A stretch of DNA of 64,000 bases from an uncultured Chloroflexia bacterium (lineage in GTDB: Bacteria > Chloroflexota > Limnocylindria > Limnocylindrales > CSP1-4), in contig CAWGWF010000002.1 in NCBI GenBank assembly GCA_963826225.1, positions 4,987 through 68,986 on the forward strand, in the 5' to 3' direction. The translations under genes and the position numbers were made by a program. Under the pieces are notes generated by a model. It did not search any database. It was not told the DNA's origin and was given only the letters and a program-made list of their open reading frames with translations. Of the stretch, positions 11,897-64,000 are shown piece by piece (positions within the stretch are counted from its first letter, which is position 1; every line of letters starts with the position of its first letter).

Positions 11897-12305
11897 TGCC
11901 CTGGCACCTGTGCTCCCACGTGAGACGACACGAGCGACAGCCGGATCCTCGTGGGGCCAGCCGGTGCGCTCGCGGGCCCTTCGGCGATCGCCGCAAGGGC
12001 ATCGGTTGTCAGTCGCGTGTTGCTCATCGGTACCTCCGGCGACAGTATGTGGCGGACTCTTGTCGCGCCGGGGGCCGGGAGCGTGGGGCGGGCCTCCGTG
12101 GCGCGGAGGGATCGCATGACCGCTTCGCGGCGCATCTTCGGGGAGAGGTGTATCGGCCGGTCTGCCGCAGCCGACCCTGAGGTGGGCGGCCCGGTGCGCG
12201 GCCGCCGGGACTTCGGCTCGAGGCCGTCGAGCCCCGGTCCCGGCAGCGGCGCGGGCGCCGGTGGAGGTGGCCGCGGCTGGTGCGGCACTCCGCCGCCGCG
12301 GCGTA

Positions 12306-15430: not shown

Positions 15431-16447
15431 ATGGCCAGCACCCGGTTCGAATCCTCCGTCATCTCGATCTCCTGGATCCCGTCTGAGGCGATCGCAGGCC
15501 TGTCGAAGGTCCCGTTCGAGCTGGGGGTCACCCACTACGACCAGGTCCCACCGGACCAGATCGAGGATCTGGAGGAGCTGCGCCGCACGGATCGGTTCCG
15601 TGAGGCGAACGAGCTCCGGGCGTTCATCGAGGTCGAGGATGGGCGGATCGTCGGGTACGGTCACCTGGGACAGGGGCACATCGGCGCGACGACGGTGCGC
15701 GTCGGCCCGAGTGCCATCCGCTTCCCGGCGGTGCACCTGCCGGACATCCGTCCCGAGCCCGACGTGACCCCGACATCGGTCCGGTTCGTCCAGACGGTCG
15801 GCGGACGGATGGGTCTGCCGACACCACGCCCCGTCCGACACAAGCCGTTCGTGCAATTCTGGCCATCGATCGCGTGGACGACGCTGGCCCTCACCATCGA
15901 CGTCGACGGCGCATCGACGCATGAGCTGGTCGGCGCCAGCCCGTTCCCGCGTCACTGGATCTACGACCAGGGCGGGCGGCTCGTGCAGAAGTCGGGCGTG
16001 GTCGACTTCACGACGTGGTTCAACGACTCGTTCGGCGATCGCACGCCATGGGGTACCTCGGACTCTCCTGCCGTCGTCGCCGCCGTCGAGTCCGCCCTCG
16101 AGCGACGACTCTCCGGGGACATCATGCGAGGGGGCGCCAAGCCCAGGATCCGCACGATCGCCCAAGGAGAAGCGCTCGTGGAACAGGGTGCTCAGGGAAC
16201 GGACGTCTACCTGATCCTGGATGGGATCTTCGTGGTCGAGGTGGACGGCGATCAGGTCGCCGAGATCGGCCCCGGAGCCGTCGTGGGCGAGCGCGCCGGG
16301 CTGGAAGGTGGCATCCGCACCGCCACGCTGCGAGCCACGACACGAGCGAGAGTGGCCGAGGTCCCGCCTGAAGGGCTCAGTACGGATGACCTGGACACGC
16401 TCTCGGCAGCGCACCGACGCGAGGGGGATGTCGCCCCGAACGGCTGA
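15431..16447 (+). CDS. cyclic-nucleotide-binding domain protein with uncharacterised ~230-aa N-terminal domain
   Basis: C-terminal cNMP fold (GEALVEQGAQGTDVYLILDGIFVVEVDG..VAEIGPGAVVGERAGLEGGIRTATLRATT). The N-terminal domain matches no family I recognise. Confidence 0.8.
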   Translation: MASTRFESSVISISWIPSEAIAGLSKVPFELGVTHYDQVPPDQIEDLEELRRTDRFREANELRAFIEVEDGRIVGYGHLGQGHIGATTVRVGPSAIRFPAVHLPDIRPEPDVTPTSVRFVQTVGGRMGLPTPRPVRHKPFVQFWPSIAWTTLALTIDVDGASTHELVGASPFPRHWIYDQGGRLVQKSGVVDFTTWFNDSFGDRTPWGTSDSPAVVAAVESALERRLSGDIMRGGAKPRIRTIAQGEALVEQGAQGTDVYLILDGIFVVEVDGDQVAEIGPGAVVGERAGLEGGIRTATLRATTRARVAEVPPEGLSTDDLDTLSAAHRREGDVAPNG

Positions 16448-16853
16448 CCTGCGCGGACCGCCCGTCGCCCGTGAGGGTCGGCTGGATGGACAGCCGACGC
16501 GTACTGCTCGTGCGCTGCAGTCGCCCTCCGAGCGGCTGCGTCCGACGCAGCGTCGCCGGCTGGCTCAGGGCAGCGCGGCGGATGACCGTGGCCCGGAACG
16601 GGCCCGCCAGCAGCTCGAGCACCGGGCCATAGGCACCGGCGGCCATGGCCTTGGCGAGATGCGCCGTCCGTGCCTCGGGCGACTCCCAGTCGGCGATGTC
16701 GATGAGCAGGTCGGGGTCGTCGAGCGACTCGTAGTACGTGCTCCCGTGGTAGCCGCCCGGTCGATCGCGGGCGGCGAGCTGCTCGATGAGCGCTCGCAAC
16801 TCGTCTCGCCGGCCTGCCTTGGCCTTCAGCTCGACGATGACCTTGACTGCCAT
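16377..16853 (-). CDS. antibiotic-biosynthesis-monooxygenase (ABM) / dimeric alpha-beta-barrel domain protein
   Basis: MAVKVIVELKAKAGRRDELRALIEQL...LLIDIADWESPEARTAHL is ABM-like over about 95 aa. The remaining ~60 codons are low-complexity and overlap the convergent gene by 70 nt, so the 3' end is suspect. Confidence 0.55.
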   Translation of the reverse strand: MAVKVIVELKAKAGRRDELRALIEQLAARDRPGGYHGSTYYESLDDPDLLIDIADWESPEARTAHLAKAMAAGAYGPVLELLAGPFRATVIRRAALSQPATLRRTQPLGGRLQRTSSTRRLSIQPTLTGDGRSAQVSRSGRHPPRVGALPRACPGHPY

Positions 16854-37007: not shown

Positions 37008-37140
37008 CAAGGTGCGTGCGGCGCGTCTCGGCAAGGCGCAGGCCGGGCGGGTACCGTCGGCCACGTCGCGGCGGAGGCGGACGCGGCCCCCGGAGCGGAG
37101 CCCGGCCGCCCGGGCCTTCGGGGTGACCCCGGGACGCCTC

Positions 37141-37961
37141 GGCGGGCTGGTCCGCCCGTCACGGGGGCGTCACGGGGCAAGGGCACGCTCTGTGCAACCA
37201 CCACACGGAGCCGTTCATGTCGCTCATCGGAGATCTCGGCAGCTTCATCCTCGGAACCGCGTATGCGCTGCGCGTCCCGTTCGCGATCGCGGGGATCGTC
37301 GCGCTCGTCGTCCTGGCCGCGGTCGCCCGCCGGCGAGGCTGGGTCGTCGTCGCGCGGCGCCATCCGCTGGCGTCGGCGGTCGCGATCGGCGCCGCGGCGA
37401 TCGTGGCGGTGCCGCTCGGCTGGTACCTCGTGTCACCCCTGTTCATCTCGACGGAGCTGCAGGAGGCGCCGGTCGTCGCCGCGGCGAACCCGTCCCCGTC
37501 CCCGGTCGCGCCCACGACGCCGGCGCCGACCGCATCCGCCAGCCCGCGACCCGACGCCTCTGCAACGGTGGCACCCACCGCCTCGCCGCCGCCGACGCCC
37601 GAACCCTGGACGCCGGCGCCACCGCGACGGGGCGAGTTCGTCGGGACCGACGAGTTCCACTTCGGACGGGGCACCGCCACCCTGAGCGAGGTCGCGCCGG
37701 GGGAGTGGGTCGTCCGGTTCGACGACTTTGCCGTCCGCAACGGCCCGGACCTCTTTGTCTACCTGTCGCCCGATGCCGACGGCTATGTGGACGGCGCGAT
37801 CGAGGTCGCCCGTCTCAAGGCCGACAAGGGCAGCTTCAACACGCAGGTCCCGTCCGGCACGGACGTCTCGGGCGCCAGGTCCGTGCTCATCTGGTGCAAG
37901 CAGTTCTCGCACCTGTTCGCGGTGGCCACCCTCGACCGCTGAGGGAGCGGCGCACGTGCTG
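37141..37961 (+). repeat. 820-bp direct repeat, copy B (contains DM13 gene)
   Basis: See 31311..32130. Confidence 0.9.
37217..37942 (+). CDS. DM13 domain-containing membrane protein, copy 2
   Basis: 241 aa, identical to copy 1 except for one residue (TASASP versus TASTSP). Confidence 0.8.
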   Translation: MSLIGDLGSFILGTAYALRVPFAIAGIVALVVLAAVARRRGWVVVARRHPLASAVAIGAAAIVAVPLGWYLVSPLFISTELQEAPVVAAANPSPSPVAPTTPAPTASASPRPDASATVAPTASPPPTPEPWTPAPPRRGEFVGTDEFHFGRGTATLSEVAPGEWVVRFDDFAVRNGPDLFVYLSPDADGYVDGAIEVARLKADKGSFNTQVPSGTDVSGARSVLIWCKQFSHLFAVATLDR

Positions 37962-37990
37962 TGGAGGCTCGACGCGGACGACGTGGCGCC

Positions 37991-38923
37991 ATGACGACGA
38001 CGGACACCGCCCCACGCCGGTCGGCCGGGATGGCCTCCGCGCGTGTCGTGGTCACGGCCGTCGTCGCCATGGCGCGACCCAGCCAGCTCCTGCTCGTCGC
38101 CACGGTCATGCTGCTGGGCGTCGCGTTCGCCGCGGCGCACGGCGCGTCGCCGGGCTCGGCGGCGCTGGTGGTCGGGCTGCTGGCGTTGCTCCCGGTGGCG
38201 GCCGGCATCCATCTCGCCAACGAGTACGCCGATCACGAGACCGACAGCCTGACGGCGAGGACGCTGTTCTCCGGCGGGTCCGGCGCGCTCGCCCGGACGG
38301 GGCTCCCGCGCTCGATGGCGCTGCGCGCGGCGCAGGCCGCCACGCTCGCGGGCTTCGGCGCCGCGGTCGCCGGCTGGTCGGCGGGCGTTCTCCCCGGGCC
38401 GGCGTTCGTGATCCTCGGGCTCGGTGCTGCCGGTGGATGGGCCTACTCGCTTGGGCCGTTCCCGCTCGCCTGGCATGGTCTGGGCGAGGCGGCCAACGGG
38501 ATCCTCGGCGGGATGCTCCTACCGCTCTACGGTGTGGCGGTCGCGGGCGCCAGCCTGGATGCGGCCGCAGTCGCGGTGTTCGTGCCGCTCACGCTGGTCG
38601 TGATGGCCAACCTCCTGGCGACCACATGGCCCGATCGCGTGGCCGACGCCGCGGTCGGCAAGCGCACCCTCGCGACCCGCTGGCAGCCGGCCGGCCTGCG
38701 CCGACTGTTCGCGACCCTCGCGGCGAGCGCCACGGCGCTGATCGCGGCAGGACTGCTGGCCTGGCCGGTCGTTGTCGTGCTTGCCGGGCTGTCGGCCGTG
38801 CCGTTGCTGATCGTCGGGCTCGCCTGGTACACCCGCCGCGAGTCGCCATTCCCGACGGTCGCCGCAATGGTCTGGCTCGTCGTCGCCCAACTGGGAGCGT
38901 GGGCGCTCGTCGCGCAGGGGTGA
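37991..38923 (+). CDS. UbiA-family prenyltransferase
   Basis: 8-9 TM helices. First Asp-rich motif NEYADHETD. Start taken at the ATG at 37991. Confidence 0.8.
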   Translation: MTTTDTAPRRSAGMASARVVVTAVVAMARPSQLLLVATVMLLGVAFAAAHGASPGSAALVVGLLALLPVAAGIHLANEYADHETDSLTARTLFSGGSGALARTGLPRSMALRAAQAATLAGFGAAVAGWSAGVLPGPAFVILGLGAAGGWAYSLGPFPLAWHGLGEAANGILGGMLLPLYGVAVAGASLDAAAVAVFVPLTLVVMANLLATTWPDRVADAAVGKRTLATRWQPAGLRRLFATLAASATALIAAGLLAWPVVVVLAGLSAVPLLIVGLAWYTRRESPFPTVAAMVWLVVAQLGAWALVAQG

Positions 38924-52233: not shown

Positions 52234-53043
52234 ATGACCCGCGACGCGTCGCTGACCCGCCGAACATTCCTCGCCCGGGTCGCACGTGTCTCGGGCGGGC
52301 TCGTCGTCGTGGGGATCGCGGGCTGCATGCCCGGAGCCGGCACGTCGGTGCCCGGGTCGCCGGCCCGACCGAGCACCACGCCTCTGCCCGACCCCACCCG
52401 GACGCCGGAGACCTCGCCCCCCACGGGCGGCGCGACGCCCTCCGCCGCCGGCGACGGCGTTGCCTGGACCCGCGTCGACCTGGGCAACGTGTCCGCCTAC
52501 GTCCTCGTTCGCGGCGGCGAGGCGGCGGTCGTCGACACCGGGAACCCAGGCGCCGACGACGAGATCGCGGACGCGCTGGCCTCGATCGGGCTCGACTGGG
52601 GGGCTGTCGGCCACGTCATCCTCACCCATCGCCATTCGGACCACGTCGGCAGTGTCTCGGCGGTGCTGGAGGCGGCCCCGGCTGCGACCGGCTATGCCGG
52701 CGCGGCGGACCTTGCCTCGATCGACGCCCCGCGGGAGCTCCGAGCGGTCGCCGACGGTGACACCGTGTTCGGCCTGCAGATCGTCGCCACCCCGGGCCAC
52801 ACGGCGGGCCACGTGAGCGTGCTCGACCCGGTCGGCGGAATCCTCGTGGCCGGCGACGCCTTGAACACGAGCGGCGGCAAGGTCACCGGCCCCAACCCGG
52901 GCTACACCGCAGACATGGCGACGGCCTCCGATTCGGTCGCCAGGCTCGCGGCGCTGTCGTTCGAGACGCTCCTGGTCGGGCACGGCGACCCGATCGAGGG
53001 CGGAGCGTCGGCGATGGTCGCCGCCCTGGCGGCCGGCGGCTGA
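52234..53043 (+). CDS. MBL-fold metallo-hydrolase, Tat-exported lipoprotein
   Basis: Twin-arginine TRRTFL, lipobox GIAGC, a Pro/Thr linker, THRHSDHVG and TPGHTAGH. Confidence 0.85.
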   Translation: MTRDASLTRRTFLARVARVSGGLVVVGIAGCMPGAGTSVPGSPARPSTTPLPDPTRTPETSPPTGGATPSAAGDGVAWTRVDLGNVSAYVLVRGGEAAVVDTGNPGADDEIADALASIGLDWGAVGHVILTHRHSDHVGSVSAVLEAAPAATGYAGAADLASIDAPRELRAVADGDTVFGLQIVATPGHTAGHVSVLDPVGGILVAGDALNTSGGKVTGPNPGYTADMATASDSVARLAALSFETLLVGHGDPIEGGASAMVAALAAGG

Positions 53044-53094
53044 CGGCGAGCCGGGGGTCGACCCGGGCCCTGCGGCGCCGGCGTTCCCGGTCCG

Positions 53095-53802
53095 CTACTC
53101 GAAGCCCGGAGCGCGGGCATCCAGGATCCCGTGCCGGATCGAGGCCGGGGAGCCGTAGGTGCCGAGGAGCGACACCAGCTCTCCGAGCGCCAGGGCAACA
53201 TCGTCCGAGGCGGTCGCGTGGTGCCCTTCGACCGTGACCAGGATGTCCGTGGTGTCGAGGCGCGCGGCACTCCCGGCGCTCTGCCGCCAGCACCAGCGGC
53301 GGGCGCTCACGACGTCGGCCTCGTCGGCAAAGATCACCTCGCCCGGCTCCGGGTGCTCGGCCAGGCTTGAGCCCAGGTCTGCCCATGGCTCGTCACCACG
53401 GGCGAACCGGACCGTCGTGCCGACCGAGATCCCGCGCAGGTCGAAGACGGCGACCGGGAGCGCATGCCGGATGCTGACCAGGTTCGCGACATCCACCAGC
53501 GTCCCGATCGACGGCAGGTCTCCCTGCCTGATCAGGCGGCGGAGCAGGGCCTCGGCCGCCGAGCGGTACTGCGTCGGATCGACGCCGAAGCCGCGGAACA
53601 CCCTGCGCCAGGCCGCGAGGGTGGGCAGCTCGCTGAGGGGCGTTGCGCCGATCCGTGCCCGCACCGCCACGGTCTCGTCGCGGAAGGCTGCGGCGAGACG
53701 GGGCGGCGTCGGCTCGTTGTGCACGCCGGCGGCATGGATGACGCCGCCGACCACCGCCGGGAAGCGCTCGATGATGGCCGGGTCATAGCGGAAGCGCGTC
53801 AC
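53095..53802 (-). CDS. B3/B4 tRNA-binding-domain protein (PheT B3/4-like)
   Basis: LAAWRRVFRGFGVDPTQYRSAAEALLRRL...LPSIGTLVDVANLVSIRHALPVAVFD. It starts 16 nt after the HypA-like stop on the same strand. Confidence 0.75.
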   Translation of the reverse strand: MTRFRYDPAIIERFPAVVGGVIHAAGVHNEPTPPRLAAAFRDETVAVRARIGATPLSELPTLAAWRRVFRGFGVDPTQYRSAAEALLRRLIRQGDLPSIGTLVDVANLVSIRHALPVAVFDLRGISVGTTVRFARGDEPWADLGSSLAEHPEPGEVIFADEADVVSARRWCWRQSAGSAARLDTTDILVTVEGHHATASDDVALALGELVSLLGTYGSPASIRHGILDARAPGFE

Positions 53803-53817
53803 GGCGGCTCCCGGGCG

Positions 53818-54102
53818 TCACGCGGGGGCCGGCGCCCGGTCGAGGTCGTCCTCCGGGCACTCGACGTCCACCCAGACCAGGCGGAGCGCCCGCTCGTCCG
53901 TCGCCGCCAGGAAGTGGAGCTCCGCGCCCTCGACCATGGTGCCGCGCGCGGCCTCCTCGAGGTGGAAGGCGACAGCCTCCTCGGTTGCCCCGGCGTCCTC
54001 ACCGATCTCGAGGTGCAGGTCGGTGATCCTGGTCGCGCCGGCCTGGTGCGCGTGGTCGAGCGCGAGGGCCACGATCCGTTCGGCGATCCCCGATTCGTGC
54101 AT
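53818..54102 (-). CDS. HypA-like hydrogenase nickel-insertion protein lacking the zinc-finger module
   Basis: N-terminal MHE nickel motif, then ...ITDLHLEIGEDAGATEEAVAFHLEEAARGTMVEGAELH parallel to HypA. Only 94 aa with a single Cys, so the CxxC...CxxC zinc site is absent. ATGA overlap with the protease gene. Confidence 0.6.
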   Translation of the reverse strand: MHESGIAERIVALALDHAHQAGATRITDLHLEIGEDAGATEEAVAFHLEEAARGTMVEGAELHFLAATDERALRLVWVDVECPEDDLDRAPAPA

Positions 54103-54869
54103 CAGCCCGGATCGTACCCGCGGGCGCCGGGCGCCGCCGCTCCACCCTGCGCCGCTCCGGCCTGCGGCGCACCGCCGCCCACGATGCGCGCCATCACCCT
54201 CCCGGCCACCATGGGCACCGCCGCCGCCACCGGTGCGGTCATCCGGCCGCCCACGGTCGTGCTGTCGCCGGCCTCCACGGCGATGATGGCCACGTCGGCA
54301 GGCACCGCCAGGCCGAGCATGCGGGCCAGCTCCAGGGCCTCAAGGAGCCCGATGTAGTGGGGTGAGCCGCCGCGCGGGCCGTCCAGGTCGGCCTCCGTCA
54401 GCTCGAGGACGGTGCCCGGCTCCACCGTGCCGCTCAGCACGGAGTCGATCACGATGAGCTTCGAGGCCCCCACGACGGCCTCGAGCAGGTACATGCCGGT
54501 GAGAGCGGTCTCCACGACCTCCACGCGCCCGACCGCCGGCAGCTCGAAGGCCTGGCCTGTCGCCGCCGGGTCGAACGATGGCCCGGCCGGCACCTGGGTG
54601 CCCGCGATGGCGAGGCGCCTGGCCAGCTCTCGCGCGGCGACGATGCCCACGGCGTCGTCGGCGATGAGCTCGTTGCCCAGGCACAGCACCCGGATGGGGC
54701 CGGTGACGACCGCGACCCCCGGCGCGAGCGCGATCCCGGCGGTGGATGCGCTCGCGACCGGGGCGGTGACTTCCGTCGCGGCGGCGACGCCCGCGTCGAC
54801 GCAGCCCGTCGCGGCGGCGCCAGTCTCGATCACGGGGACGCTACTCGCGGTGGATGCTGCCATCGGCAT
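54102..54869 (-). CDS. [NiFe]-hydrogenase maturation endopeptidase (HycI/FrhD/HoxW family)
   Basis: RVLCLGNELIADDAVGIVAA, LIVIDSV...PGTV and SPHYIGLLEALELA. It carries a ~55-aa Ala/Thr/Val-rich N-terminal extension and a Gly/Ala-rich tail. The start is uncertain (ATG 54869 or 54863, or GTG 54833). Confidence 0.8.
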   Translation of the reverse strand: MPMAASTASSVPVIETGAAATGCVDAGVAAATEVTAPVASASTAGIALAPGVAVVTGPIRVLCLGNELIADDAVGIVAARELARRLAIAGTQVPAGPSFDPAATGQAFELPAVGRVEVVETALTGMYLLEAVVGASKLIVIDSVLSGTVEPGTVLELTEADLDGPRGGSPHYIGLLEALELARMLGLAVPADVAIIAVEAGDSTTVGGRMTAPVAAAVPMVAGRVMARIVGGGAPQAGAAQGGAAAPGARGYDPG

Positions 54870-56415
54870 CCCGGCGCAGGAGCGACACTGTCTCGCCCCC
54901 GGATCCGCGCACTGTCACCACGAGCGGCATGCTTCCCGGCAGCGAGTGCGTGGCACACGCGTGGCAGGGATCGTAGGCGCGGAAGGCCATCTCCACCTTG
55001 TTGAGGATGCCGGCCGACACCTCTCCCTTCGAGATCAGCCCCTTGGCCGCCTTCTCCACGCTCATCGCCATGCGGGCCGAGTTGTTCTGCGTCGCGACGA
55101 TCAGGTTGGCCTGCTCGATGATCCCGTTGTCATCCGTGACGTAGTGGTGGAACAGGGTGCCGCGTGGCGCCTCGACCACCCCGACGCCCTCACGCGGCGT
55201 CGCGGTGGGCAGCGTGCGCACGTTGGGGTCGATCAGCTCCGGGTCCGCGGCGAGCTCCTTGAGCCGCTCCGCGGCATACAGCAGCTCGACCACCCTGGCC
55301 CAGTGGTTGGCCAGGGTGTGATGCACGGGCTTGCCCCCGAGCGTGGTGAACAGCTCCTCGTAGGCCTCCTGGGCCAGCGGCGTCGCCATCCCGTCGGCGG
55401 CATTGAGCCGCGCCAGCGGCGCGACCGAGTAGATGCCGCTGTCGGCCCCGTCGGTGAAGCCGTTCCAGCCGACGGGCTTGAGATAGCAGAACTTGACGTA
55501 GGACCAGGGTTCGACGTGCTCGGCCACGAAATCGAGGTATTGGGAGGCCTCGAACGAAGCGTAATGGGCGCCCCCGGGATCGACCACGCGGACCCGACCG
55601 TCGTAGAAGTTGGGGTGGTTCCCCTCGTCCATGAGGCCCATGTAGTAGGTGCGGTGGGTGAAGGCGTCGGAGACGATGAGGTCCACGTAGGCCGGGTTGG
55701 CCAGGACCACGCCGCGGAAGGTGTCGAGGGTGAACTTGGCGAACTCGAGGGCGTCGTCGGCGACGGCGACGATCTCCGCCTGCTGCTCCGCGGTCACCCG
55801 CTTGGCGACGCCGCCCGGGAGCCCGAGCACCGGGTGGATCACCTTGCCGCCGAGCAGCGTGATGACCTCCCGGAGCCGGCGCCGGTTGGCGATCACGCGC
55901 AGCCCGACCTCCAGGCCCACCGCGCCGATGACGCCCAGGATGTTGCGCTGGGCGGCGGGCGCATCGGGACCGACCACGAAGTCGGGGCCGCCGAGGAAGT
56001 AGAAGTGCAGCGCGTGATCCTCGACCATGAAGGTCGAGTAGACCAGCTCCCGGATCTTCTTCGCCGCCGGCGGCGGGTCCACCTGGTACAGGGCGTCGAG
56101 CGCCTTGGTGGCCGCCATGTGGTGCGCCGTGGGGCACACCCCGCAGATGCGCGAGGTGATCTGGGGCATGTCCTCGGCCGGGCGGCCCTGGGCGAACTTC
56201 TCGAAGCCGCGCAGCTCGGGGACCTGGAAGTAGGCCCGCTCGACGTCGCCGTCGTCGTCGAGGAAGATGTCGATCTTGCCGTGTCCCTCGAGGCGGGTGA
56301 TGGGATCGACGGTGATGCGGCGCCGGGCGTAGGCGCCCTGGGCCCCCTGGGACGCCCGGCTCAACGCCTCCTGGGTGGCCATCGTGTCTGTCATGGGTCG
56401 GGGCTCCTCAGGCAT
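54841..56415 (-). CDS. mvhA: [NiFe] hydrogenase large subunit, group 3 (MvhA-like by gene context)
   Basis: RLEGHG start, N-terminal NiFe ligands RICGVCP, C-terminal ligands DPCHACATH followed by a 34-aa cleavable extension. Confidence 0.92.
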   Translation of the reverse strand: MPEEPRPMTDTMATQEALSRASQGAQGAYARRRITVDPITRLEGHGKIDIFLDDDGDVERAYFQVPELRGFEKFAQGRPAEDMPQITSRICGVCPTAHHMAATKALDALYQVDPPPAAKKIRELVYSTFMVEDHALHFYFLGGPDFVVGPDAPAAQRNILGVIGAVGLEVGLRVIANRRRLREVITLLGGKVIHPVLGLPGGVAKRVTAEQQAEIVAVADDALEFAKFTLDTFRGVVLANPAYVDLIVSDAFTHRTYYMGLMDEGNHPNFYDGRVRVVDPGGAHYASFEASQYLDFVAEHVEPWSYVKFCYLKPVGWNGFTDGADSGIYSVAPLARLNAADGMATPLAQEAYEELFTTLGGKPVHHTLANHWARVVELLYAAERLKELAADPELIDPNVRTLPTATPREGVGVVEAPRGTLFHHYVTDDNGIIEQANLIVATQNNSARMAMSVEKAAKGLISKGEVSAGILNKVEMAFRAYDPCHACATHSLPGSMPLVVTVRGSGGETVSLLRRDADGSIHRE

Positions 56416-57418
56416 CGACTGCGGCCAGCTCGGCCGTGGCCGGCTGCTCGGGGTCCATCTTCCGGCGGCGGAGCAGGCTGCCCGCCAGGCCGTAGCGGTA
56501 GAACGTGCCGATCGGGTCGGGGATGCTGTCCAGGGCGACCTCGACGGCGTCGTCGTCGGTCGCCGAGAGCATCGAGGCCACGGCCGACAGGTACTTGCCG
56601 CCCTGGTCGTGGACCTTGCTGGTCGGGCCGAAACAGCCGGTGCAGGGCATGTTGCCCCGGATGCACAGCTGGCCGCAGCCCGCCCGGGTCGCGGGGCCCA
56701 TGCACAGCAGGCCCTGGGCCAGCAGGCAGGTCTCCTCGTCGATCAGGATCTCGTGCGGCCGGAAGAACCGGTCGAGGGCGAGGTCCTGGGGCTTGGTCTC
56801 CAGGCGCGGGCACTCCTCGCACAGGGCCCGGTCCTCGGTGAGCACCGTCCCCTTCGGCGGCAGCTCACCCGACAGCAGGGTCTGCACGGCGCCCGCGATC
56901 ACGTTGGGCGTCGGCGCGCAGCCCGGGATGTAGTAGTCCACGTCGGTGACCTGGTCGAGGGCACGGACCGTGTTGTAGAACGTGGGCAGCGTCACCCACT
57001 CGCCGTCGTGCGGCGTGGCAACCCGGGGCAGCACCCCGTCTGGGTTGACCGTGGACGGCGTGGTCCGGTAGGCGGTGTCGAAGATGGACGCCCGATCCCA
57101 CAGGTTGGCCAGGGCGGGGATCCCGCCCAGGTGGGCGCAGGCGCCGAAGGCGACCAGCACCTTCGCCTTGCGCCGCAGGAGGTGGGCCATCTCCTCCTGC
57201 TCGGAGGTCCGGATGGCACCGTTGACGAAGGCGGCCAGGATCGACCCGTCCTCCATCGCCTCCACGTCGGCCTTCTTGAAGTCGAGGGCGACCGGCCAGA
57301 ACACGATGTCCACCGCGGCCACGACGTCGAGGATCCCCTCGGCGAGGTCCACGACCGCCTCCTCGCAGCCGCCGCACGAGGCGCACCAGTAGAAGGCGAC
57401 CTTGGGCTTGTCGCTCAT
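56408..57418 (-). CDS. mvhG: [NiFe] hydrogenase small subunit, group 3 (MvhG-like)
   Basis: MSDKPKVAFYWCASCGGCEEA, GACAHLGGIP, IPGCAPTP and the distal clusters CEECP...CLLAQGLLCMGPATRAGCGQLCIRGNMPCTGCFGP. Only the last 336 codons of ORF 56408..57841 are used. Confidence 0.9.
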   Translation of the reverse strand: MSDKPKVAFYWCASCGGCEEAVVDLAEGILDVVAAVDIVFWPVALDFKKADVEAMEDGSILAAFVNGAIRTSEQEEMAHLLRRKAKVLVAFGACAHLGGIPALANLWDRASIFDTAYRTTPSTVNPDGVLPRVATPHDGEWVTLPTFYNTVRALDQVTDVDYYIPGCAPTPNVIAGAVQTLLSGELPPKGTVLTEDRALCEECPRLETKPQDLALDRFFRPHEILIDEETCLLAQGLLCMGPATRAGCGQLCIRGNMPCTGCFGPTSKVHDQGGKYLSAVASMLSATDDDAVEVALDSIPDPIGTFYRYGLAGSLLRRRKMDPEQPATAELAAVDA

Positions 57419-57918
57419 GCCGTCACCTCCGCCAGCTCGGCAGCCCGTGGCGTCGCGCCCGGGGCCGCCTCGATCGGCACTTCGAGGTGCAGCGGGCCGA
57501 GCGCTCGCACCTGCTCCACCATCTCGTTCACCACGTCGCGCAGCTTGTCGGCCTCGGCGGCCGAGATCCACTCGAGGCGGAACCGCTCCTCCTCGATCCC
57601 CATGCCGGCCAGGACGCGTCGCAGCAGCCGGAAGCGCCGGAACGCCTTGTGGTTGCCCGACTGGTAGTGGCAGTCGCCGAAGTGGCAGCCGCCGACAAGC
57701 ACGCCGTCGGCGCCGCTCGCGAACGCCTGCATCACGAACTGGGGGTCGACCCTGCCCGAGCACATCAGCCGGATGACGCGGGTGTTGGGCGCGTACTTCA
57801 TCCGAGACGTGCCGGCCAGGTCGGCCGCCAGGTAGGTGCACCAGTTGCAGAAGAAGGCGACGATCCTCGGCTCCCAGCCGGCGGCGCTCTCCTGCTGGAC
57901 TTCGATCGGCTCAGGCAT
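57415..57918 (-). CDS. mvhD: methyl-viologen-reducing hydrogenase delta subunit (MvhD/FlpD)
   Basis: IVAFFCNWCTYLAADLAG, RLMCSGRVD and VGGCHFGDCHY. ATGA overlap with mvhG and an 8-nt overlap with hdrA. Confidence 0.9.
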   Translation of the reverse strand: MPEPIEVQQESAAGWEPRIVAFFCNWCTYLAADLAGTSRMKYAPNTRVIRLMCSGRVDPQFVMQAFASGADGVLVGGCHFGDCHYQSGNHKAFRRFRLLRRVLAGMGIEEERFRLEWISAAEADKLRDVVNEMVEQVRALGPLHLEVPIEAAPGATPRAAELAEVTA

Positions 57919-59901
57919 GGGCCAGCACCCCCAGGATCTCTTCGAAGATCTCTTCGTCTTCGAACAGGTTCTGCCGGATGGACCCGGACGGGCAGGCGGC
58001 CACGCAGGTGCCGCATCCCTTGCACAGCACCGGGTTGATCTCGGCCTTCCCATCCACCCGGACGATCGCGGTGTAGGGGCACAACGGGATGCAGGTCTTG
58101 CAGCCCGAGCACTCCTCGGCGATCACGTAGGCGGTGTTCGGCTCCATCTCCACGTAGCCCCGGTCGACCAGGGCCAGCGCCTCGGCGGCGGCGGCCCCGG
58201 CCTGGGCCACGGTGTCCGGGATGTCCTTGGGGCCCTGGCAGGCGCCGGCCAGGAAGATGCCGTCGGTGAACGTGCTCACCGGGGCCAGCTTCGGGTGGCG
58301 CTCCAGGAAGAACCCGCCCCCGGCGCAGGTGATGTTGAAGGTGCGGCGCACATCCTCGGCGTCCGCCTGCGGCTCGAGACCGGTGGCCAGGACCACCATG
58401 TCCACCGGGATCTTGCGCACCCGGCCGAGCAGCGTGTCCTCGGCCTGGAGGACGACCCGGCCGGTGTTGCCGGCCTCCGGGAAGACGTCGGCCACCTTGC
58501 CCCGGATGAAGTGGACCCCCTCCTCGCCGACCCGGTTGTAGAACTCCTCCATGCCCTTCCCGGGAGCCCGGATGTCGATGTAGAAGTTGTAGATCTCGGC
58601 CCCGGTCTTCTCCTTGATCAGGTGAGCGAGCTTGAGGGAGTACATGCAGCACACCCGGGAGCAGTACTCGTTGGTGTTGACGTCGCGGCTCCCGATGCAG
58701 TGGAGGATCCCCACCGTCCTGGGGGTGCTTCCGTCCTTCAGGATGACGTGCCCTTCGGTGGGCCCCGACGAGTTCACCAGCCGTTCCAGCTCCAGGGCGG
58801 TGTACACGTTCGGGAAGACCCCGTAGCCGTACGAGGGTGCCCGCCGCGGGTCGAAGGTCTTGAAGCCGGTCGCCAGGATCATCGTGCCCACCTCGACCGT
58901 GTCGAACGTGGGGACCTGGGTGAAGTCGATGGCGTTGCGGTCCGCGCACACCTCGACGCAGGTCTTCTTGCACGGCCGGACTTGAACTCGATGCAGGCCT
59001 CCTGGTCGATGACCACGACCTGCGGCACGGCCTGGGGGAACGGGATGTAGACGGGCTTGCGCATGGACAGGCCGAGGTTGAACTCGTCGGCCGTCTTGCC
59101 CACCTTGTACACGCAGGCCTCGATGCACTCGAGGCACCCGACGCAGGCTTCCTCCACGATGAAGCGTGGCTTGTGGCGCACCGTCACCGTGTAGTTGCCC
59201 ACGTATCCATCGACCCTGTCGATCTCGGCCATCGTCCACAGGGTGATGTTGGGGTTGGACCGCACGTCGGTCATCTTCGGGGTGAGGATGCAGGCGGCAC
59301 AGTCGAGGGTCGGGAAGGTCTTGTCGAACTGGGCCATGTGGCCGCCGATCGACGGCTCCCGCTCCACGAGGTAGACGTGCTTGCCGGCGTTGGCCATGGT
59401 CAGGGCCGCGTGGATGCCGGCGATCCCGCCGCCGACCACCATCACGGCGGGGTTGACGGGTACCCGCGACCGCTCCAGGGGCTTGTGGAAGCGCACCCGG
59501 TGGACCGCCGCGCGGAGCAGGTCCTTGGCCTTGAGGGTCGCCTCCACGTGATCGCTGTGCACCCACGAGTCCTGCTCGCGGATGTTGACCATGTGGAAGA
59601 AGTAGGGGTTGATACCCCCCTCGGCCGTCGCGCGGCGGAAGGTCGCCTCGTGCAGCGTCGGCGAGCAGGAGGCAACGACCACCCGCTCCAGGTCGTTGGC
59701 CCGGATGTCCTCCTTGATGAGCTCCTGGCCCGGGTCGGAGCACATGTACTTGTACGCGCGTGCCACCGACACCCCGGGGAGGCCTTCCGCGTAGGCCCGC
59801 ACGGCCTCCACGTCGACCGTGCCCGCGATGTTGGTGCCGCAGTGGCAGACGTACACCCCGATCCGCGGCTGGCCGTTCCTGCTCTCGTCGGCCGAGTTCA
59901 T
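57911..59901 (-). CDS. hdrA: heterodisulfide reductase subunit A-like flavoprotein (HdrA), apparent 1-nt frameshift near 58973-58978
   Basis: The N-terminal part is ORF 58879..59901 (IGVYVCHCGTNIAG, VMVVGGGIAGIHAAL, CVGCLECIEAC). The C-terminal part is in the frame of ORF 57911..59908 (PCKKTCVEVC..., GILHCIGSRD, CCMYSLK, FLAGACQGPKDI, CSGCKTCIPLCP, CKGCGTCVAACP). The junction reads ...IDQEACIEFKSG|PCKKTC... inside a ferredoxin-type Cys motif. Confidence 0.85.
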
Positions 59902-61802
59902 AGGTCACTCCTCGACGTCACACCCATGGCGTCTTCCACCAGCTCCACGATGTCTCTCACCCCGAGCGTCCCTTCCAGGCCCGTCGTCTTGACGGCGTCA
60001 CGGAACATCACCAGGTCCTTGGGACACGCACACACGAGCGTCGTCACGCCCGCCAGGCCGGCTGCCTCGCGCACCCGGCTCTCGGCGGGACGCTCGCCCT
60101 CGCGTGCGGCGTCCTCCATCCAGATCCTCCCGCCGCCCGCACCGCAGCAGTACGCGGCGGACCGGTTGCGGGGCATCTCGACCACGTTCATGCCCAGCGC
60201 GCCCAGGACGTGGCGCGGGGCTTCGTACACGCCGCCGTAGCGGCCGAGGTAGCACGGGTCGTGGTAGGTGACCCGGGCGCCTCCGTTGCGGGCCACCGGC
60301 AGGCTGCCCGACGAGATCAGCCCGTCGAGGACCTCCGTGTAGTGCTTGACCGTGCCGTCCAGCCCGTACTCGTTCTTCAGCACGTGGTAGGTGTGGGGAT
60401 CGGTGGTCACGATCGTCCGGAACTCCGAGGATTCGAGCGCCGCGAGGTTCTTGTCCCGCAGCATCTCGAACAGGCCCTCCTCGCCCAGGCGGCGGACGTC
60501 GTTGCCCGCGTTCTGCTCGCCGTCGTAGAGGATCCCGAAGTCCAGGCCAGCCGCGGCGAAGACCCGCGCCGCCGTCCTGGTCACCTCCTGGACGCGGGGG
60601 TCGAACGAGGCGTAATCGCCCACGAACCACAGGTACTCCACGGGCTCCCGGCGGGCGTCCTTGACCTCGAGCTCGAGGTCGCGCGTCCACTTGGGCCGGG
60701 TGCGGGGCGACTGGCCGAACGAGTTCCCATAGCGGGTCATGCCCATCAGCATGTCCCCGACGCCCTGGCCCACAGCGCCTTCTCCGATCAGGTGCCGCCG
60801 CATCTGGACGACCAGTGGCACGTGCTCGTTGAGGACGGGGCAGCGCGCCATGCACGCACCGCACGTGGTGCACGCCCAGACCGCGTCCGCGCCGACGGCA
60901 TCGACCAGGCTCCCGTGGCCGTCGCCCGAGGCGGCGCCGATGACCATCAGCTTCACGCCGTGAACGAGGTCCTGGGGCGACATCGCCCCGCCCATCGCGA
61001 ACGCTGGACACGACCGGTCGCACCGGCCGCATTCGGCGCACGAGAGACCGTTGAGCAGCTGCCGCCAGGTGAACTGCTCGAGGTGAGCGGCGCCCTCCGA
61101 TGGCGGCGGCATCGCGCTGCGGTCCAGGGACCCGGTGAACACGTTGAAGGGCGAGGCCAGCAGGTGGAGATGCTTGGAGTACGGCAGGTAGGCCAGGAAG
61201 CCCAGCACCGCCACCATGTGGATCCACCACATCGCCGTGTACAGCGTCTCGGCGGCGGACGAGGACAGGCCGCCGAGACCGGCGGCGGCCACCTGGCCGA
61301 CCAGGAACGTCACCACGAGCAGCGCGATCAGGGCGAGGATGAACGCGGCGTCGCCCGATTGGGTGAGGCGTGCCGGCCTGACCACGAACCTGCGGATGGC
61401 CGCCCCCGCGAGCGCCACCACGGTGGCCAAGCTGAGCACGACCATCGGGATCGTGAACCAGGCGACCTCGTCGGAGTACGGGATCGGCAGGGCGGGGACG
61501 AGACCCCGGACCAGGTTCCAGGCGAAGCTGGTGGCGTAGAACAGGAACGTCCAGAAGATCACCAGGTGGGCCAGCCCCACGCCCGGGTTGTCGAACATCC
61601 GGCGTTGGGCCAGGACGTTGACCACCACGCTCCGGGCGCGGGCAGGCAGCCGGTCGAGGCGGCGCTCCGGCCGGCCCCTCGCGAGGGCCCGCACCAGCCG
61701 ATAGACCCGGGTCCCGAACAGGACGACGGCGATCGCCGTGAACGCCCACAGCCAGGCGACGCCGGGGATGAGCAGCGAGGTCGAGGCGGTCGGGTCGGGC
61801 AT
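59898..61802 (-). CDS. membrane-bound Fe-S oxidoreductase: NarI/DsrM-like cytochrome b domain fused to an HdrD/DsrK-like domain (2x[4Fe-4S] + CCG domains)
   Basis: About 5-6 TM helices with conserved His residues (HLVIFWTF; WWIHMVAVLGFLAYLPYSKHLHLLASPFNVF). CAECGRCDRSCP and CTTCGACMARCP. CCG-type motifs YHDPCYLGR and AAYCCGAGGG. Start at the ATG at 61802; ATGA overlap with hdrA. Confidence 0.85.
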   Translation of the reverse strand: MPDPTASTSLLIPGVAWLWAFTAIAVVLFGTRVYRLVRALARGRPERRLDRLPARARSVVVNVLAQRRMFDNPGVGLAHLVIFWTFLFYATSFAWNLVRGLVPALPIPYSDEVAWFTIPMVVLSLATVVALAGAAIRRFVVRPARLTQSGDAAFILALIALLVVTFLVGQVAAAGLGGLSSSAAETLYTAMWWIHMVAVLGFLAYLPYSKHLHLLASPFNVFTGSLDRSAMPPPSEGAAHLEQFTWRQLLNGLSCAECGRCDRSCPAFAMGGAMSPQDLVHGVKLMVIGAASGDGHGSLVDAVGADAVWACTTCGACMARCPVLNEHVPLVVQMRRHLIGEGAVGQGVGDMLMGMTRYGNSFGQSPRTRPKWTRDLELEVKDARREPVEYLWFVGDYASFDPRVQEVTRTAARVFAAAGLDFGILYDGEQNAGNDVRRLGEEGLFEMLRDKNLAALESSEFRTIVTTDPHTYHVLKNEYGLDGTVKHYTEVLDGLISSGSLPVARNGGARVTYHDPCYLGRYGGVYEAPRHVLGALGMNVVEMPRNRSAAYCCGAGGGRIWMEDAAREGERPAESRVREAAGLAGVTTLVCACPKDLVMFRDAVKTTGLEGTLGVRDIVELVEDAMGVTSRSDL

Positions 61803-61807
61803 CGGCG

Positions 61808-62776
61808 TCACCCCTTGCGCGTCCTCACGGCCTCGGCCATCGCCTCGAGCACGTCGGTGGCGTCGTCGACGATCCCGTAGTGGGCGATCGAGAAGATCGG
61901 CGCGCCGGCGTCGGTGTTGACCGCGACGATGAGCTCGGCGTCCTTCATGCCTTCGACGTGCTCGGGGGCCCCGCTGATGCCGGCGGCCACGTACAGGCGC
62001 GGCTTGACGGTGAGGCCGGACTTGCCGACCTGGCGCACCATCGGCAGCCAGCCCTGGTCGATCACCGGGCGGGACCCGCACACCGCACCGCCGAGGGCCT
62101 CGGCCAGCTCCTCGGCCACCTCGAGGTTCGCCTCGCTGGTGATCCCCCGCCCCACCGCGACCAGCACCTCCTGGGCGGTGATGTCCACGTCACCGGCCTC
62201 GGGCTCCTCGTAGCCGACCAGGCGCACCGGAGGCTCGCCGGGGAGGTCGACCGCCACGTCCTCGACGGCCGGCGCCGGGGCGCCATCCACCGCGGTCGCC
62301 GCCCCGGGCAGGACGGCCAGCACGACGGGGCCGGGCCCGGGCGCCACGGTCACGGTCATCTTGCCGCCGTACAGCAGGCTGCTGACGACGAGGGCGCCAT
62401 CGACGACCCTCACCTCCCGGCAGACGTTGACCAGCGGCGAACCCAGCCGCGCGGGCAGGAGGCCCAGCAGGTCCCAGCTCACGTTGGTGGTGGGCACCAG
62501 GACGACGGACGGAGCACGTTCGGCGGCCAGGGCAGCCAGCGCCCGGCTCGCCTGGAGCCCCGTCGCATCCGCGAGCGTGGGGTGGTCCACGTACAGCACG
62601 GTGTCCGCGGGGCCCAGCGAGGCGGCCAGGCCGCGCATCCCGTGGCCCAGGAGCACGGCCTCGAGGCGAGTGCCCAGCGAATCGGCGAGCGAGCGCCCCA
62701 GCGCCAGCAGCTCGCCGGTGGCGTCCGAGATGGTTCCCCGCCAGTGCTCCGCCACGACCCAGACATTGCCTGTCAT
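61808..62776 (-). CDS. etfA: electron transfer flavoprotein alpha subunit
   Basis: The C-terminal FAD domain VAVGRGITS...AVCGSRPVIDQGWLP...QVGKSGLTVKPRLYVAAGISGAPEHVEGM...IVAVNTD..APIF matches the Etf alpha signature. Confidence 0.9.
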   Translation of the reverse strand: MTGNVWVVAEHWRGTISDATGELLALGRSLADSLGTRLEAVLLGHGMRGLAASLGPADTVLYVDHPTLADATGLQASRALAALAAERAPSVVLVPTTNVSWDLLGLLPARLGSPLVNVCREVRVVDGALVVSSLLYGGKMTVTVAPGPGPVVLAVLPGAATAVDGAPAPAVEDVAVDLPGEPPVRLVGYEEPEAGDVDITAQEVLVAVGRGITSEANLEVAEELAEALGGAVCGSRPVIDQGWLPMVRQVGKSGLTVKPRLYVAAGISGAPEHVEGMKDAELIVAVNTDAGAPIFSIAHYGIVDDATDVLEAMAEAVRTRKG

Positions 62777-62786
62777 CGCCGTCTCC

Positions 62787-63566
62787 TCAGACCAGCCCGC
62801 GGGCGGCCAGGAGGTCGACCACCCGTTCCGCCACGTCCCGCACCGACCCCTGCAGCATTTCCGCGTGCCCGGCGGACTCGGGCTTGGCCATGGCCGTCAC
62901 CGTGAGCGGCGCGACGGGAGGACCGCCCGCCGCCGGGATCGTCTCGATGCCGCCCGCCGCCATGGCCGCCCGCACCTTGGCGATCGGGACGTAGCGCGGC
63001 GGCTTCTCGCAGCCCTGGATGCCCAGGAACGCCGGCAGGGCGACCTCGAAGCGCCCCATGACGCCGCCCGGGTACTCGCGCGCGACGACCGCGGCGGACG
63101 CCCCCGCCTCGAGCGTGACCCGGCTGACCAGGCCCAGGTACGGCAGCTGGAGCGCGTCGGCCAGCAGTGGCGCCGTGAAGCCGTCGAGATCGTCGTTGGC
63201 CCCGCAGCCGCTGAGCACGAGGTCCGCGGGCAGGGCGCCCGCGATCCCGGGCAGCGTGGCCGCCATCGCCACCGCCGTGACCCGGGTGCCCGCGGTGGGC
63301 GGGATCCCGTACACCCGGATGACCCGGTCGGCGCCCTTGGCCAGCGCGGTGTGGAGGACGTCGTCCACCTCGGGCGCCTCCGGGGCGACCACCGTGACCG
63401 TCGCCCCCAGCCGGTCCTTGAGCAGCAGCGCCTGCTCGAGGGCGTAGTCGTCGCGCTCGTTGACGATGAAGCGCAGGTACTCCGCGTCGAGCGAGGTGCC
63501 GTCGCCGGCGACCTCCAGCTCCTCCACGATGTCCGGCACCATCCTCATCATGACCAGGATCTTCAT
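62787..63566 (-). CDS. etfB: electron transfer flavoprotein beta subunit (divergent)
   Basis: MKILVMMRMVPD...NERDDYALEQALLLKD...ADLVLSGCGANDDLDGFTAPLLADALQLPYLGLVS. Overall Etf beta architecture with an unusual central motif. Confidence 0.88.
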   Translation of the reverse strand: MKILVMMRMVPDIVEELEVAGDGTSLDAEYLRFIVNERDDYALEQALLLKDRLGATVTVVAPEAPEVDDVLHTALAKGADRVIRVYGIPPTAGTRVTAVAMAATLPGIAGALPADLVLSGCGANDDLDGFTAPLLADALQLPYLGLVSRVTLEAGASAAVVAREYPGGVMGRFEVALPAFLGIQGCEKPPRYVPIAKVRAAMAAGGIETIPAAGGPPVAPLTVTAMAKPESAGHAEMLQGSVRDVAERVVDLLAARGLV

Positions 63567-63614
63567 GGCGCCTGCGCGTCCTCCTCGCTCGATCCCGCCA
63601 CCGGTCTCTGCCCG

Positions 63615-64000
63615 TCAGTCACCGAGCGCCTCGTCGACCAGCTCCATCACGTCGCGCACGACCATCCGGTCGTCGTAGCCGAGCACCTTCAGCGAGTCCT
63701 CGAACCGCGGCACCTCGAACGGGCAGGAGACGGCCAGGACGTCGGCGCCGGTCTCGATCGCCTCCAGCACCCGGATGTCGGACAGGCGGACGTGGCCCTT
63801 GGCCTTGTAGTGGGTGTCCAGCCACATGCCGCCGCCACCGCCGCCGCAGCAGATCGTGTTGTCCCGGTTGTGGGTCATCTCCACGAGGCTCACGCCGGGC
63901 AGGGCCGCCAGGATCCGCCGCGGCTCCTCGTGCATGTGGTTGTGGCGGCCCAGCACGCACGAATCGTGGTAGGTCACCCGGTACCCCAGCTGCCTGGTCA
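63615..64000 (-). CDS. CCG-domain (HdrB/HdrD/GlpC-like) Fe-S oxidoreductase, C-terminal part only (5' end beyond right edge)
   Basis: VTYHDSCVLGRH and TICCGGGGGGMW CCG motifs. The frame stays open upstream of the GTG at 63977 to the window end (...TRQLGYR VTYHDSC), so the gene is partial. Confidence 0.75.
   Translation of the reverse strand, partial: TRQLGYRVTYHDSCVLGRHNHMHEEPRRILAALPGVSLVEMTHNRDNTICCGGGGGGMWLDTHYKAKGHVRLSDIRVLEAIETGADVLAVSCPFEVPRFEDSLKVLGYDDRMVVRDVMELVDEALGD

Follow-up and report, generated by a model that had tools for sequence, protein, structure and literature searches.

A minus-strand gene cluster at positions 53818–64000 of a 64-kb window, the whole stretch of DNA analysed here (contig CAWGWF010000002.1; positions are window coordinates unless another locus is named), joins an Mvh-type [NiFe] hydrogenase and HdrA to an electron-transferring flavoprotein (ETF, EtfAB) and a membrane-bound cytochrome-b/Fe–S protein. 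We interpret it, with moderate confidence, as an operon for a modular, probably reversible H2:ETF/ferredoxin flavin-based bifurcating system with its own link to the quinone pool. The cluster is real and conserved across many uncultured soil and sediment bacteria. The first-pass annotation, made from the same sequence, had proposed one bifurcating or confurcating unit, linked to H2 and connected with Etf and the quinone pool, and this proposal is supported by a gene order that is kept across phyla and by the grouping of the Mvh-linked membrane proteins in one clade.

Gene identities, cofactor motifs, conserved synteny and homology to characterised modules form the basis of the following route, whose conjectural elements are the docking partner of HdrA, the ETF as acceptor, ferredoxin as low-potential partner and the physiological direction. 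MvhAG would oxidise H2, and MvhD would hand the electrons to the FAD of full-length HdrA, which would bifurcate them. The low-potential electron would leave through the ferredoxin domains of HdrA to a ferredoxin (Fd), and the high-potential electron would enter a soluble CCG-domain protein (sCCG), bound where HdrC binds, and travel by way of its two cubane clusters and then its non-cubane cluster to the FAD of the co-encoded EtfAB. The reduced ETF would then be re-oxidised at the membrane by the cytochrome-b/Fe–S protein, an ETF:menaquinone oxidoreductase (EMO), which would reduce menaquinone (MK). The net forward reaction would be 2 H2 + MK + 2 Fd(ox) → MKH2 + 2 Fd(red) + 2 H+. Where a separate HdrC–HdrB pair exists, the HdrA dimer would gain from it a second site, of HdrB type, in line with a proposal for the type II sulfur-oxidising heterodisulfide-reductase-like (sHdr) system.

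Standard potentials are -414 mV for H2, ~-450 to -500 mV for ferredoxin, ~+16 mV for ETF and -74 mV for MK, values from which a split of H2 electrons between ferredoxin and ETF/MK would be strongly exergonic overall. By our own estimate, only very low H2 would make the reverse reaction, ETF(red) + Fd(red) → H2, feasible. Group 3c [NiFe] hydrogenases are widespread among non-methanogenic bacteria, in which, without CoM-S-S-CoB, their high-potential acceptor had been unclear; the operon provides a complete candidate answer. The broader claim, that the bacterial group 3c hydrogenases of Acidobacteriota, Chloroflexota, Verrucomicrobiota and Ignavibacteriota use ETF/menaquinone instead of a heterodisulfide as the high-potential partner of HdrA, we put a little short of an even chance. 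If it holds, the group 3c enzyme would be an "H2:ETF, ferredoxin oxidoreductase" that uses H2 to reduce ferredoxin and at the same time supplies the respiratory chain, which would give a hydrogenase class of abundant uncultured soil lineages a defined physiological reaction and link H2 turnover to both ferredoxin supply and the quinone pool. In the opposite direction, at very low H2, it would allow electrons from ETF-linked dehydrogenases (e.g. of beta-oxidation) to leave as H2 with the assistance of ferredoxin, a soluble alternative to the membrane-bound reverse redox loop.

Operon layout and the hydrogenase–HdrA core

The ten consecutive minus-strand genes listed by the first-pass annotation are all present at 53818–64000, and their names were found to be correct by matches to Pfam, NCBIfam and solved structures. 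They overlap or stand no more than 48 nt apart. Gaps of 48, 10 and 5 nt separate the sCCG gene from etfB, etfB from etfA, and etfA from the EMO gene, respectively; the latter overlaps hdrA by 4 nt (ATGA), hdrA overlaps mvhD by 8 nt, and mvhD overlaps mvhG by 4 nt, all as previously listed. Two further junctions required revision: the protease and hypA genes share 1 nt (TGATG) instead of an ATGA overlap, and the 8-nt overlap reported for mvhG and mvhA is more likely a 13-nt gap, if mvhA starts at ATG 56394. No terminator-like site was predicted within 53000–64000, which says little at a G+C content that is ~72% throughout the window, and the single weak promoter-like match inside the cluster likewise carries little weight. 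The entire gene set occupies ~12 kb in one operon, so that heterologous expression and assay look feasible.

The large-subunit gene mvhA (54841–56415; Pfam NiFeSe_Hases, E-value 2.2e-37; NCBIfam VhuA, 1e-120) more likely starts at ATG 56394, which has GAGGAG upstream and yields the 517 aa called in relatives. The protein carries the NiFe ligand motifs RICGVCP and DPCHACATH, both noted in the first reading of the sequence, and a C-terminal extension beyond DPCHACATH for proteolytic maturation. Its best NCBIfam family was VhuA, at 403 bits vs 169 for the next and below the 800-bit equivalog cut-off, and its best solved relatives were MvhA-type chains (5odc_F, MvhA, 6.8e-111; 9sw2_F and 7t2r_D, within ~1e-105 to 1e-111), compared with 1.4e-95 for the group 3d chain 5xf9_D and 1e-40 or weaker for group 1. 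On these matches, the large subunit is group 3c-like (Mvh/Vhu-type), and its earlier assignment to group 3 is borne out.

The small subunit MvhG (56408–57418, 336 aa; Pfam Oxidored_q6, 2.1e-22; NCBIfam VhuG, 1.1e-60) has no evident signal peptide, its N-terminus reading MSDKPKVAFYWCASCGGC. MvhD (57415–57918, 167 aa), the [2Fe-2S] adaptor between hydrogenase and HdrA, matches the whole Pfam FlpD/MvhD profile (8.4e-54) as well as NCBIfam VhuD and the HdrA2 C-terminal domain; immediately upstream of the hydrogenase genes come mvhD and hdrA, with the overlaps of 4–8 nt given above. The maturation endopeptidase gene, of HycI/HyaD type (54102–54869; Pfam HycI, 1.6e-10; NCBIfam hydrogenase maturation protease, 4.1e-24), has candidate starts at ATG 54869, GTG 54833 and GTG 54689 and occupies the same position in relatives. 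The last gene (53818–54102) encodes a short HypA-like protein of 94 aa (Pfam HypA, 1.2e-12, residues 1–64 of the 112-position profile), which keeps the N-terminal MHE nickel-binding part, is devoid of the Zn-site CxxC pairs and contains a single cysteine. Among the homologous loci (designated by L numbers), L007 shares this short form, and L005, L021 and L074 have a canonical HypA of 114–127 aa.

The gene for HdrA (57911–59901), taken as a single gene in the first-pass annotation, is split over two reading frames, an N-terminal part at 58879–59901 and a C-terminal part at 57911–58972, whose products match FAD and Fer4 families. The cause is the loss of one nucleotide between 58973 and 58972, within the inserted ferredoxin domain, where the window reads GGC CG|TGC and relatives read GGC CGC TGC, in the context TTC AAG ACC GGC CGC TGC AAG AAG (K-T-G-R-C-K-K). 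Restoration of one base gives a methanogen-type HdrA of 663 aa, exactly as long as its intact counterparts in L003 and L087–L090. Residues 10–658 of this repaired protein align with residues 10–651 of the methanogen HdrA 8rvu_a (6.4e-217), and the alignment to this solved bifurcating enzyme includes the FAD, inserted ferredoxin and C-terminal ferredoxin domains.

Were the 1-nt deletion real, the locus would be decaying and the hydrogenase module would be non-functional in this host, a scenario to which we attach only a very slight probability. The deletion is the sole lesion seen across the ten genes, and the third-position GC of the N-terminal part is 0.92. Over 100% of its length, the window HdrA shares 89–91% identity with its orthologues in L003 and L007, and HdrA is intact, at 663 aa, in relatives with 94–95% EMO identity. 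In the related long-read assembly L004, two indels bound an out-of-frame stretch in hdrA (11871–13856) and the frame switches within mvhA (15250–16830), both apparent assembly errors. Because the relatives are intact, L004 contains such indel artefacts in the same genes and the identity to L003 and L007 extends over the full length, the frameshift in the window is probably an assembly error. A selenocysteine was considered for the split HdrA of L004 and rejected, as the split is a compensating indel pair with no UGA codon and amounts to assembly noise.

ETF, EMO and the soluble HdrC–HdrB fusion

The ETF beta and alpha subunits are encoded by etfB (62787–63566, 259 aa; Pfam ETF), which has GAGGAGG ahead of its start, and etfA (61808–62776, 322 aa; Pfam ETF and ETF_alpha). 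The nearest solved relative of EtfB is the beta subunit of the non-bifurcating, AMP-containing W3A1 ETF (1o94_C, 3.9e-26), followed by Paracoccus ETF (7.4e-16) and the bifurcating chains 5ol2_B and 4kpu_B (~1e-14). EtfA matches 5ol2_A, 6fah_A and 1o94_D at 1e-43 to 1e-45. Bifurcating (group 2) ETFs hold a second FAD in EtfB where other ETFs have AMP, and show NADH dehydrogenase activity.

The membrane fusion that follows (59898–61802, 634 aa; Pfam CCG and Fer4) matches Mycobacterium smegmatis EtfD (MsEtfD; chain 9ojn_A of PDB 9OJN) at 1.6e-64 over its transmembrane and Fe–S parts, with a value of 2.7e-55 for the soluble region. It consists of a NarI-like cytochrome b, two cubane [4Fe-4S] motifs and one non-cubane CCG domain, and has five predicted transmembrane helices, i.e. 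four strong hydrophobic segments and a fifth around residues 190–210. In the alignment, His79 and His213 take the places of the MsEtfD heme b ligands His78 and His241, and His195 lies 18 residues before His213, which is the spacing of the pairs H233/H251 of S. aciditrophicus EMO (SaEMO) and H223/H241 of M. smegmatis EMO (MsEMO) that include the distal-heme histidine; all three residues are invariant in 10 homologues. Thirteen cysteines are distributed over two CxxCxxCxxxCP cubane motifs (255/258/261/265 and 311/314/317/321) and the CCG domain (517/552/553/591/593), the one such domain that Pfam detects. At the four positions aligned with the distal-cluster residues Cys503, 538, 581 and 584 of MsEtfD, none of the EMO residues is a cysteine. 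The homologues FadF and DgcB are reportedly also devoid of distal-cluster ligands, so that this cluster varies within the EMO/EtfD family. Judged by these matches, the membrane fusion would be an ordinary EMO/EtfD-type ETF:menaquinone oxidoreductase, and etfB–etfA–EMO is contiguous in all Mvh-linked loci with the three genes, as it is in the window.

The first of the ten genes had been annotated as a partial CCG protein. It runs past the window edge, and its 3' end (63615–64000, 127 codons plus stop) belongs to a soluble Fe–S protein of ~400 aa. The content beyond position 64000 was inferred from relatives, and an exact-match look-up with EtfB returned only two short Logan contigs. The full-length orthologue of L003 (399 aa) contains Fer4_8/Fer4_17 and CCG domains; the N-terminal part aligns with methanogen HdrC (5e-14) and the rest with the non-cubane domain of MsEtfD (1.5e-48). 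The protein is 41–49% identical to the sHdrB3 (an HdrC2/B2 fusion) of Amycolatopsis (L051) over ~87% of its length, and retains two of the four distal-cluster cysteine positions and one non-cubane cluster. By homology, sCCG is a soluble fusion of HdrC and HdrB that resembles sHdrB3 or BamD. At the Amycolatopsis alkalitolerans locus and others like it, sHdrB3 sits between short sHdrA and lipoate-ligase/LbpA genes, and sCCG–etfB–etfA–EMO of the window is therefore the B3–etfB–etfA–emo module of type II sHdr.

An alternative to sCCG as the partner of HdrA is EMO itself, on which HdrA–MvhAGD would dock directly as on an HdrDE-like substitute for HdrBC, forming a membrane-bound H2:menaquinone/ferredoxin bifurcating complex with EtfAB and sCCG as an extra or alternative input. 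The soluble part of EMO is homologous to HdrC plus HdrB, its gene overlaps hdrA by 4 nt in the window and is adjacent to it in most clusters, and QmoABC pairs HdrA-like proteins with a cytochrome-b/Fe–S membrane subunit, QmoC, which the transmembrane part of EMO matches at 1.6e-9. However, the match of EMO to HdrC is far weaker than that of sCCG (2.9e-4 vs 5e-14), and in seven rearranged clusters (L013, L015, L016, L021, L026, L045 and L068) sCCG is inserted between EMO and hdrA, directly upstream of the latter, with etfB–etfA–EMO contiguous. In five clusters (L022, L023, L025, L028 and L034), a ~5-kb block of two histidine kinases, a response regulator, hdrC and hdrB parts EMO from hdrA. Moreover, characterised EMO/EtfD proteins are fed by ETF and not by a docked flavoprotein, and the membrane association expected for class II benzoyl-CoA reductase (BCRII) proved to be mediated by soluble ETF. 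We therefore consider direct docking unlikely and rank EMO as an HdrBC replacement below sCCG, which is favoured because it is the better HdrC match and because it adjoins hdrA in the rearranged clusters, where etfBA stays by EMO. The same two observations lead away from the first-pass annotation on this point, which had HdrA deliver electrons directly to Etf and the cytochrome-b/HdrD fusion, and point to sCCG instead.

Conserved synteny and separate hdrC–hdrB genes

Eighty species-representative genome loci were scanned by tblastn, and the gene neighbourhoods of chosen homologues were also inspected. EMO homologues number in the thousands, and those at 56–95% identity come from many metagenomes. 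The order sCCG–etfB–etfA–EMO–hdrA–mvhD–mvhG–mvhA–hycI was found in ~30 of the 80 loci and in several phyla, so that the gene order is common. According to record titles, the carriers are Chloroflexota (including Anaerolineae and Ardenticatenia), Acidobacteriota (Solibacteraceae, Bryobacteraceae, Terriglobia and Vicinamibacterales), Verrucomicrobiota, Ignavibacteriota, an FCB-group bin and one Thermoplasmata bin. Apart from the two rearrangements described above, a third variant has the same kinase/hdrCB block upstream of sCCG (L087). In a neighbour-joining tree of EMO, all Mvh-linked proteins form one clade, whose neighbours are type II sHdr-linked EMOs; the sCCG labels of the tree were left unused, as the query cross-matches EMO, and non-overlapping tblastn tables were employed instead.

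This conservation bears on whether the locus comprises two independent systems that happen to be neighbours, with EtfAB, EMO and sCCG serving acyl-CoA or other dehydrogenases and HdrA–MvhAGD acting as a separate soluble hydrogenase whose partners are encoded elsewhere. The etfBA–EMO set does occur alone in many genomes, and hdrA–mvhDGA modules without Etf exist in other bacteria. Nevertheless, the genes have stayed linked in several phyla and despite several rearrangements, the Mvh-linked EMOs are monophyletic, the window genes overlap or nearly abut without a terminator-like site between them, and the neighbourhoods examined show no conserved acyl-CoA dehydrogenase gene beside the cluster. 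We thus judge independence to be very unlikely.

Some carriers show particular arrangements. L074 (DATBXC010000095.1), from a bin labelled as a Thermoplasmata archaeon, contains the whole bacterial-type cluster, with 51%, 63% and 69% identity to the window for EMO, HdrA and MvhA, respectively, which reflects either horizontal transfer or mis-binning. In L045 (2374–11576), and also in L015 and L017 (Ignavibacteriota and Vicinamibacterales bins), hdrA is split by ~7 kb encoding DRTGG and HATPase proteins, an [FeFe]-hydrogenase-like protein, a PHP protein, NuoE- and NuoF-like proteins and a fusion of a NuoG N-terminus with an HdrA C-terminus, followed by mvhD; this insert looks like a HydBC/BamGHI-type input grafted onto the sCCG–ETF–EMO output. 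The Verrucomicrobiota loci L068 and L077 are rearranged, with mvhDGA upstream of the etf and EMO genes, and L068 has a second hdrA.

The first-pass annotation had also stated that hdrB and hdrC are missing. This stands for separate genes inside the 64-kb window, where none was found except for weak matches within EMO, and is otherwise largely an edge effect: sCCG is itself a fusion of HdrC and HdrB, and hdrC–hdrB lies just upstream of sCCG in the three closest relatives with upstream DNA, L088, L087 and L007 (94%, 86% and 79% EMO identity, respectively), the pair being absent upstream in L003 (79%). Because the window ends inside the sCCG gene, the absence of HdrBC is unassertable for the organism and is probably wrong; going by its relatives, it probably has hdrC–hdrB and a two-component regulator shortly beyond the window's upstream edge. 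The corresponding regions span 1238–6534 in L087, which also holds a Cache-domain histidine kinase, a hybrid kinase and a response regulator, 1–306 in L088 and 5134–6572 in L007. In L004, a second hycI–hdrC–hdrB–hdrA set with a partial MvhD-like match (2006–6198) lies immediately upstream of the main cluster, which places two hdrA copies side by side.

Separate hdrC–hdrB genes occur in at least 11 Mvh-linked clusters and suggest another possibility, namely that HdrABC–MvhAGD reduces an undefined disulfide or persulfide carrier with H2 and that sCCG–EtfAB–EMO moves thiol or sulfane-sulfur electrons to menaquinone. The combination of HdrC, HdrB, HdrA, a B3-like protein, EtfAB and EMO parallels type II sHdr, and the EMO clades of both cluster types are neighbours in the tree. 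By contrast, ~2/3 of the Mvh-linked clusters have no separate hdrCB within 10 kb, for which reason sCCG, EtfAB, EMO, HdrA, MvhDGA and HycI are taken as the conserved core. In addition, sCCG and EMO keep one non-cubane cluster each, as opposed to the two used in HdrB-type disulfide chemistry, and no candidate gene for a disulfide carrier is conserved in the cluster. Genes for LbpA, the lipoate ligase LplA and short sHdrA are present in 11–13 Mvh-less loci and were never found within ±10 kb of an Mvh-linked locus, with the region upstream of the window lying outside this coverage. Taken together, these data make a disulfide or sulfur system improbable. Membership of the cluster in the sulfur-oxidising type II sHdr family is rejected because LbpA, lipoate ligase and short sHdrA are absent within ±10 kb of all Mvh-linked loci. 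Type II sHdr-like clusters are found in cultured isolates, i.e. in L051 (404–12000; A. alkalitolerans) and L027 (Alicyclobacillus tolerans), where short sHdrA, sHdrB3, a lipoate-protein ligase, a GcvH-like LbpA, etfBA and EMO are encoded, with B3–etfBA–EMO homologous to that of the window.

Several points weigh against the H2:ETF/ferredoxin bifurcating system that we favour. The docking of sCCG, instead of EMO or HdrC, on HdrA is deduced from sequence similarity and gene order, and the direction of electron flow from standard potentials and our estimate. EtfA is equally close to bifurcating and non-bifurcating ETFs, and EtfB is closest to the non-bifurcating W3A1 protein. The hdrA gene is frameshifted in the window assembly, and every carrier found is a metagenome-assembled genome. 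Finally, about one-third of the clusters, including the closest relatives of the window, carry separate hdrC–hdrB genes by hdrA or upstream of sCCG; there, HdrABC with a disulfide substrate may constitute the main high-potential branch and sCCG–ETF–EMO may do something else.

Past the HypA-like gene, a gene for a B3/4-domain protein (53095–53802, minus strand) follows on the same strand after 15 nt; it is absent from that position in L003 and L005 and is probably outside the cluster. The downstream genes in general (B3/4-domain protein, MBL hydrolase, glycosyltransferase, MFS transporter and others) were considered and found to be unrelated to it. At 37127–38923 (plus strand), also unrelated, a gene for a DM13 ("electron transfer") domain protein abuts, and lies directly upstream of, a UbiA-family prenyltransferase gene.

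Comparison with known systems

The opinion that this wiring had no characterised example is out of date, since the BCRII route, the B3–etfAB–emo module of type II sHdr and the gene association in Chloroflexi have all been published. No biochemical characterisation of a hydrogenase linked via HdrA to ETF/EMO emerged from our literature searches. The parts and the wiring principle are known, and the hydrogen-driven combination itself would be the new element. Each proposed link has a characterised precedent: the methanogen Mvh–HdrA core, the docking of ETF on EMO and, for the whole route, BCRII.

The methanogen MvhAGD–HdrABC complex (H2:CoM-S-S-CoB, ferredoxin oxidoreductase; PDB 5ODC and 8RVU) shares MvhA, MvhG, MvhD and full-length HdrA with the window, and the core that leads from H2 through MvhD to bifurcation at the HdrA FAD is probably the same. 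The host differs in being a high-GC bacterium, with nearest homologues labelled as Chloroflexota/Limnocylindrales and Actinomycetota and no methanogenesis genes seen in the window. The gene content also differs, in that the window has no separate HdrB or HdrC and co-encodes an HdrC–HdrB fusion with one non-cubane cluster, EtfAB and EMO, a set that points to ETF/menaquinone, not a heterodisulfide, as the high-potential acceptor.

In BCRII of Geobacter metallireducens (BamBCDEFGHI), electrons pass from the HdrA-like BamE to the HdrBC fusion BamD and on through a non-bifurcating ETF and EMO to menaquinone; the ETF was seen in situ at the non-cubane clusters of BamD, and BCRII-dependent ETF reduction was measured (bioRxiv 10.64898/2026.04.10.717634). 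All five parts of this wiring are encoded at the cluster, namely a bifurcating HdrA-type flavoprotein (BamE in BCRII), an MvhD-type adaptor (BamF), a soluble HdrBC fusion (BamD, which has two cubane clusters and whose distal non-cubane cluster is degenerate), an ETF and an EMO; sCCG is likened here to BamD by its described make-up. The differences are that input comes from a [NiFe] hydrogenase in the window vs the NADH/ferredoxin-confurcating BamGHI, that the window has no tungsten BamBC output, the low-potential electron presumably going to ferredoxin, and that the ETF and EMO genes are inside the same operon. If the proposed route is correct, the BCRII principle of an output from HdrA to ETF would extend to hydrogen metabolism.

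For type II sHdr, which has the order shdrC1B1AH–B3–etfAB–emo, it has been suggested that EtfAB and EMO carry electrons to menaquinone (PMC11094781). The B3–etfB–etfA–emo part is homologous and in the same order, with identities to L051 of 47% for sCCG, 41% for EtfB, 43% for EtfA and 41% for EMO. In contrast, the window HdrA is of the 663-aa methanogen type vs ~350 aa for sHdrA, and a hydrogenase with its maturation protease is found instead of LbpA, lipoate ligase and sulfur transferases, none of which is near the Mvh-linked clusters.

The EtfAB:EMO/EtfD couples of Syntrophus aciditrophicus and mycobacteria (PDB 9OJN; PMC13083937) have the same three-domain membrane protein, heme-ligand histidines and adjacent etfBA, and ETF docks on the non-cubane clusters of the S. 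aciditrophicus EMO (bioRxiv 10.64898/2026.08.18.745454). The window EMO differs from these proteins in having neither the distal non-cubane ligands nor the long disordered C-terminus, and in belonging to a hydrogenase/HdrA operon as opposed to a beta-oxidation context.

A group 3c hydrogenase beside Hdr and ETF genes was described by West-Roberts et al. in Anaerolineae and Dehalococcoidia, with the suggestion of bifurcation (bioRxiv 10.1101/2021.08.23.457424). That report covers the Chloroflexi supergroup, without wiring or biochemistry, whereas the present analysis extends the association to further phyla, adds the matches to sHdrB3, BamD and EMO, and proposes a specific electron path.

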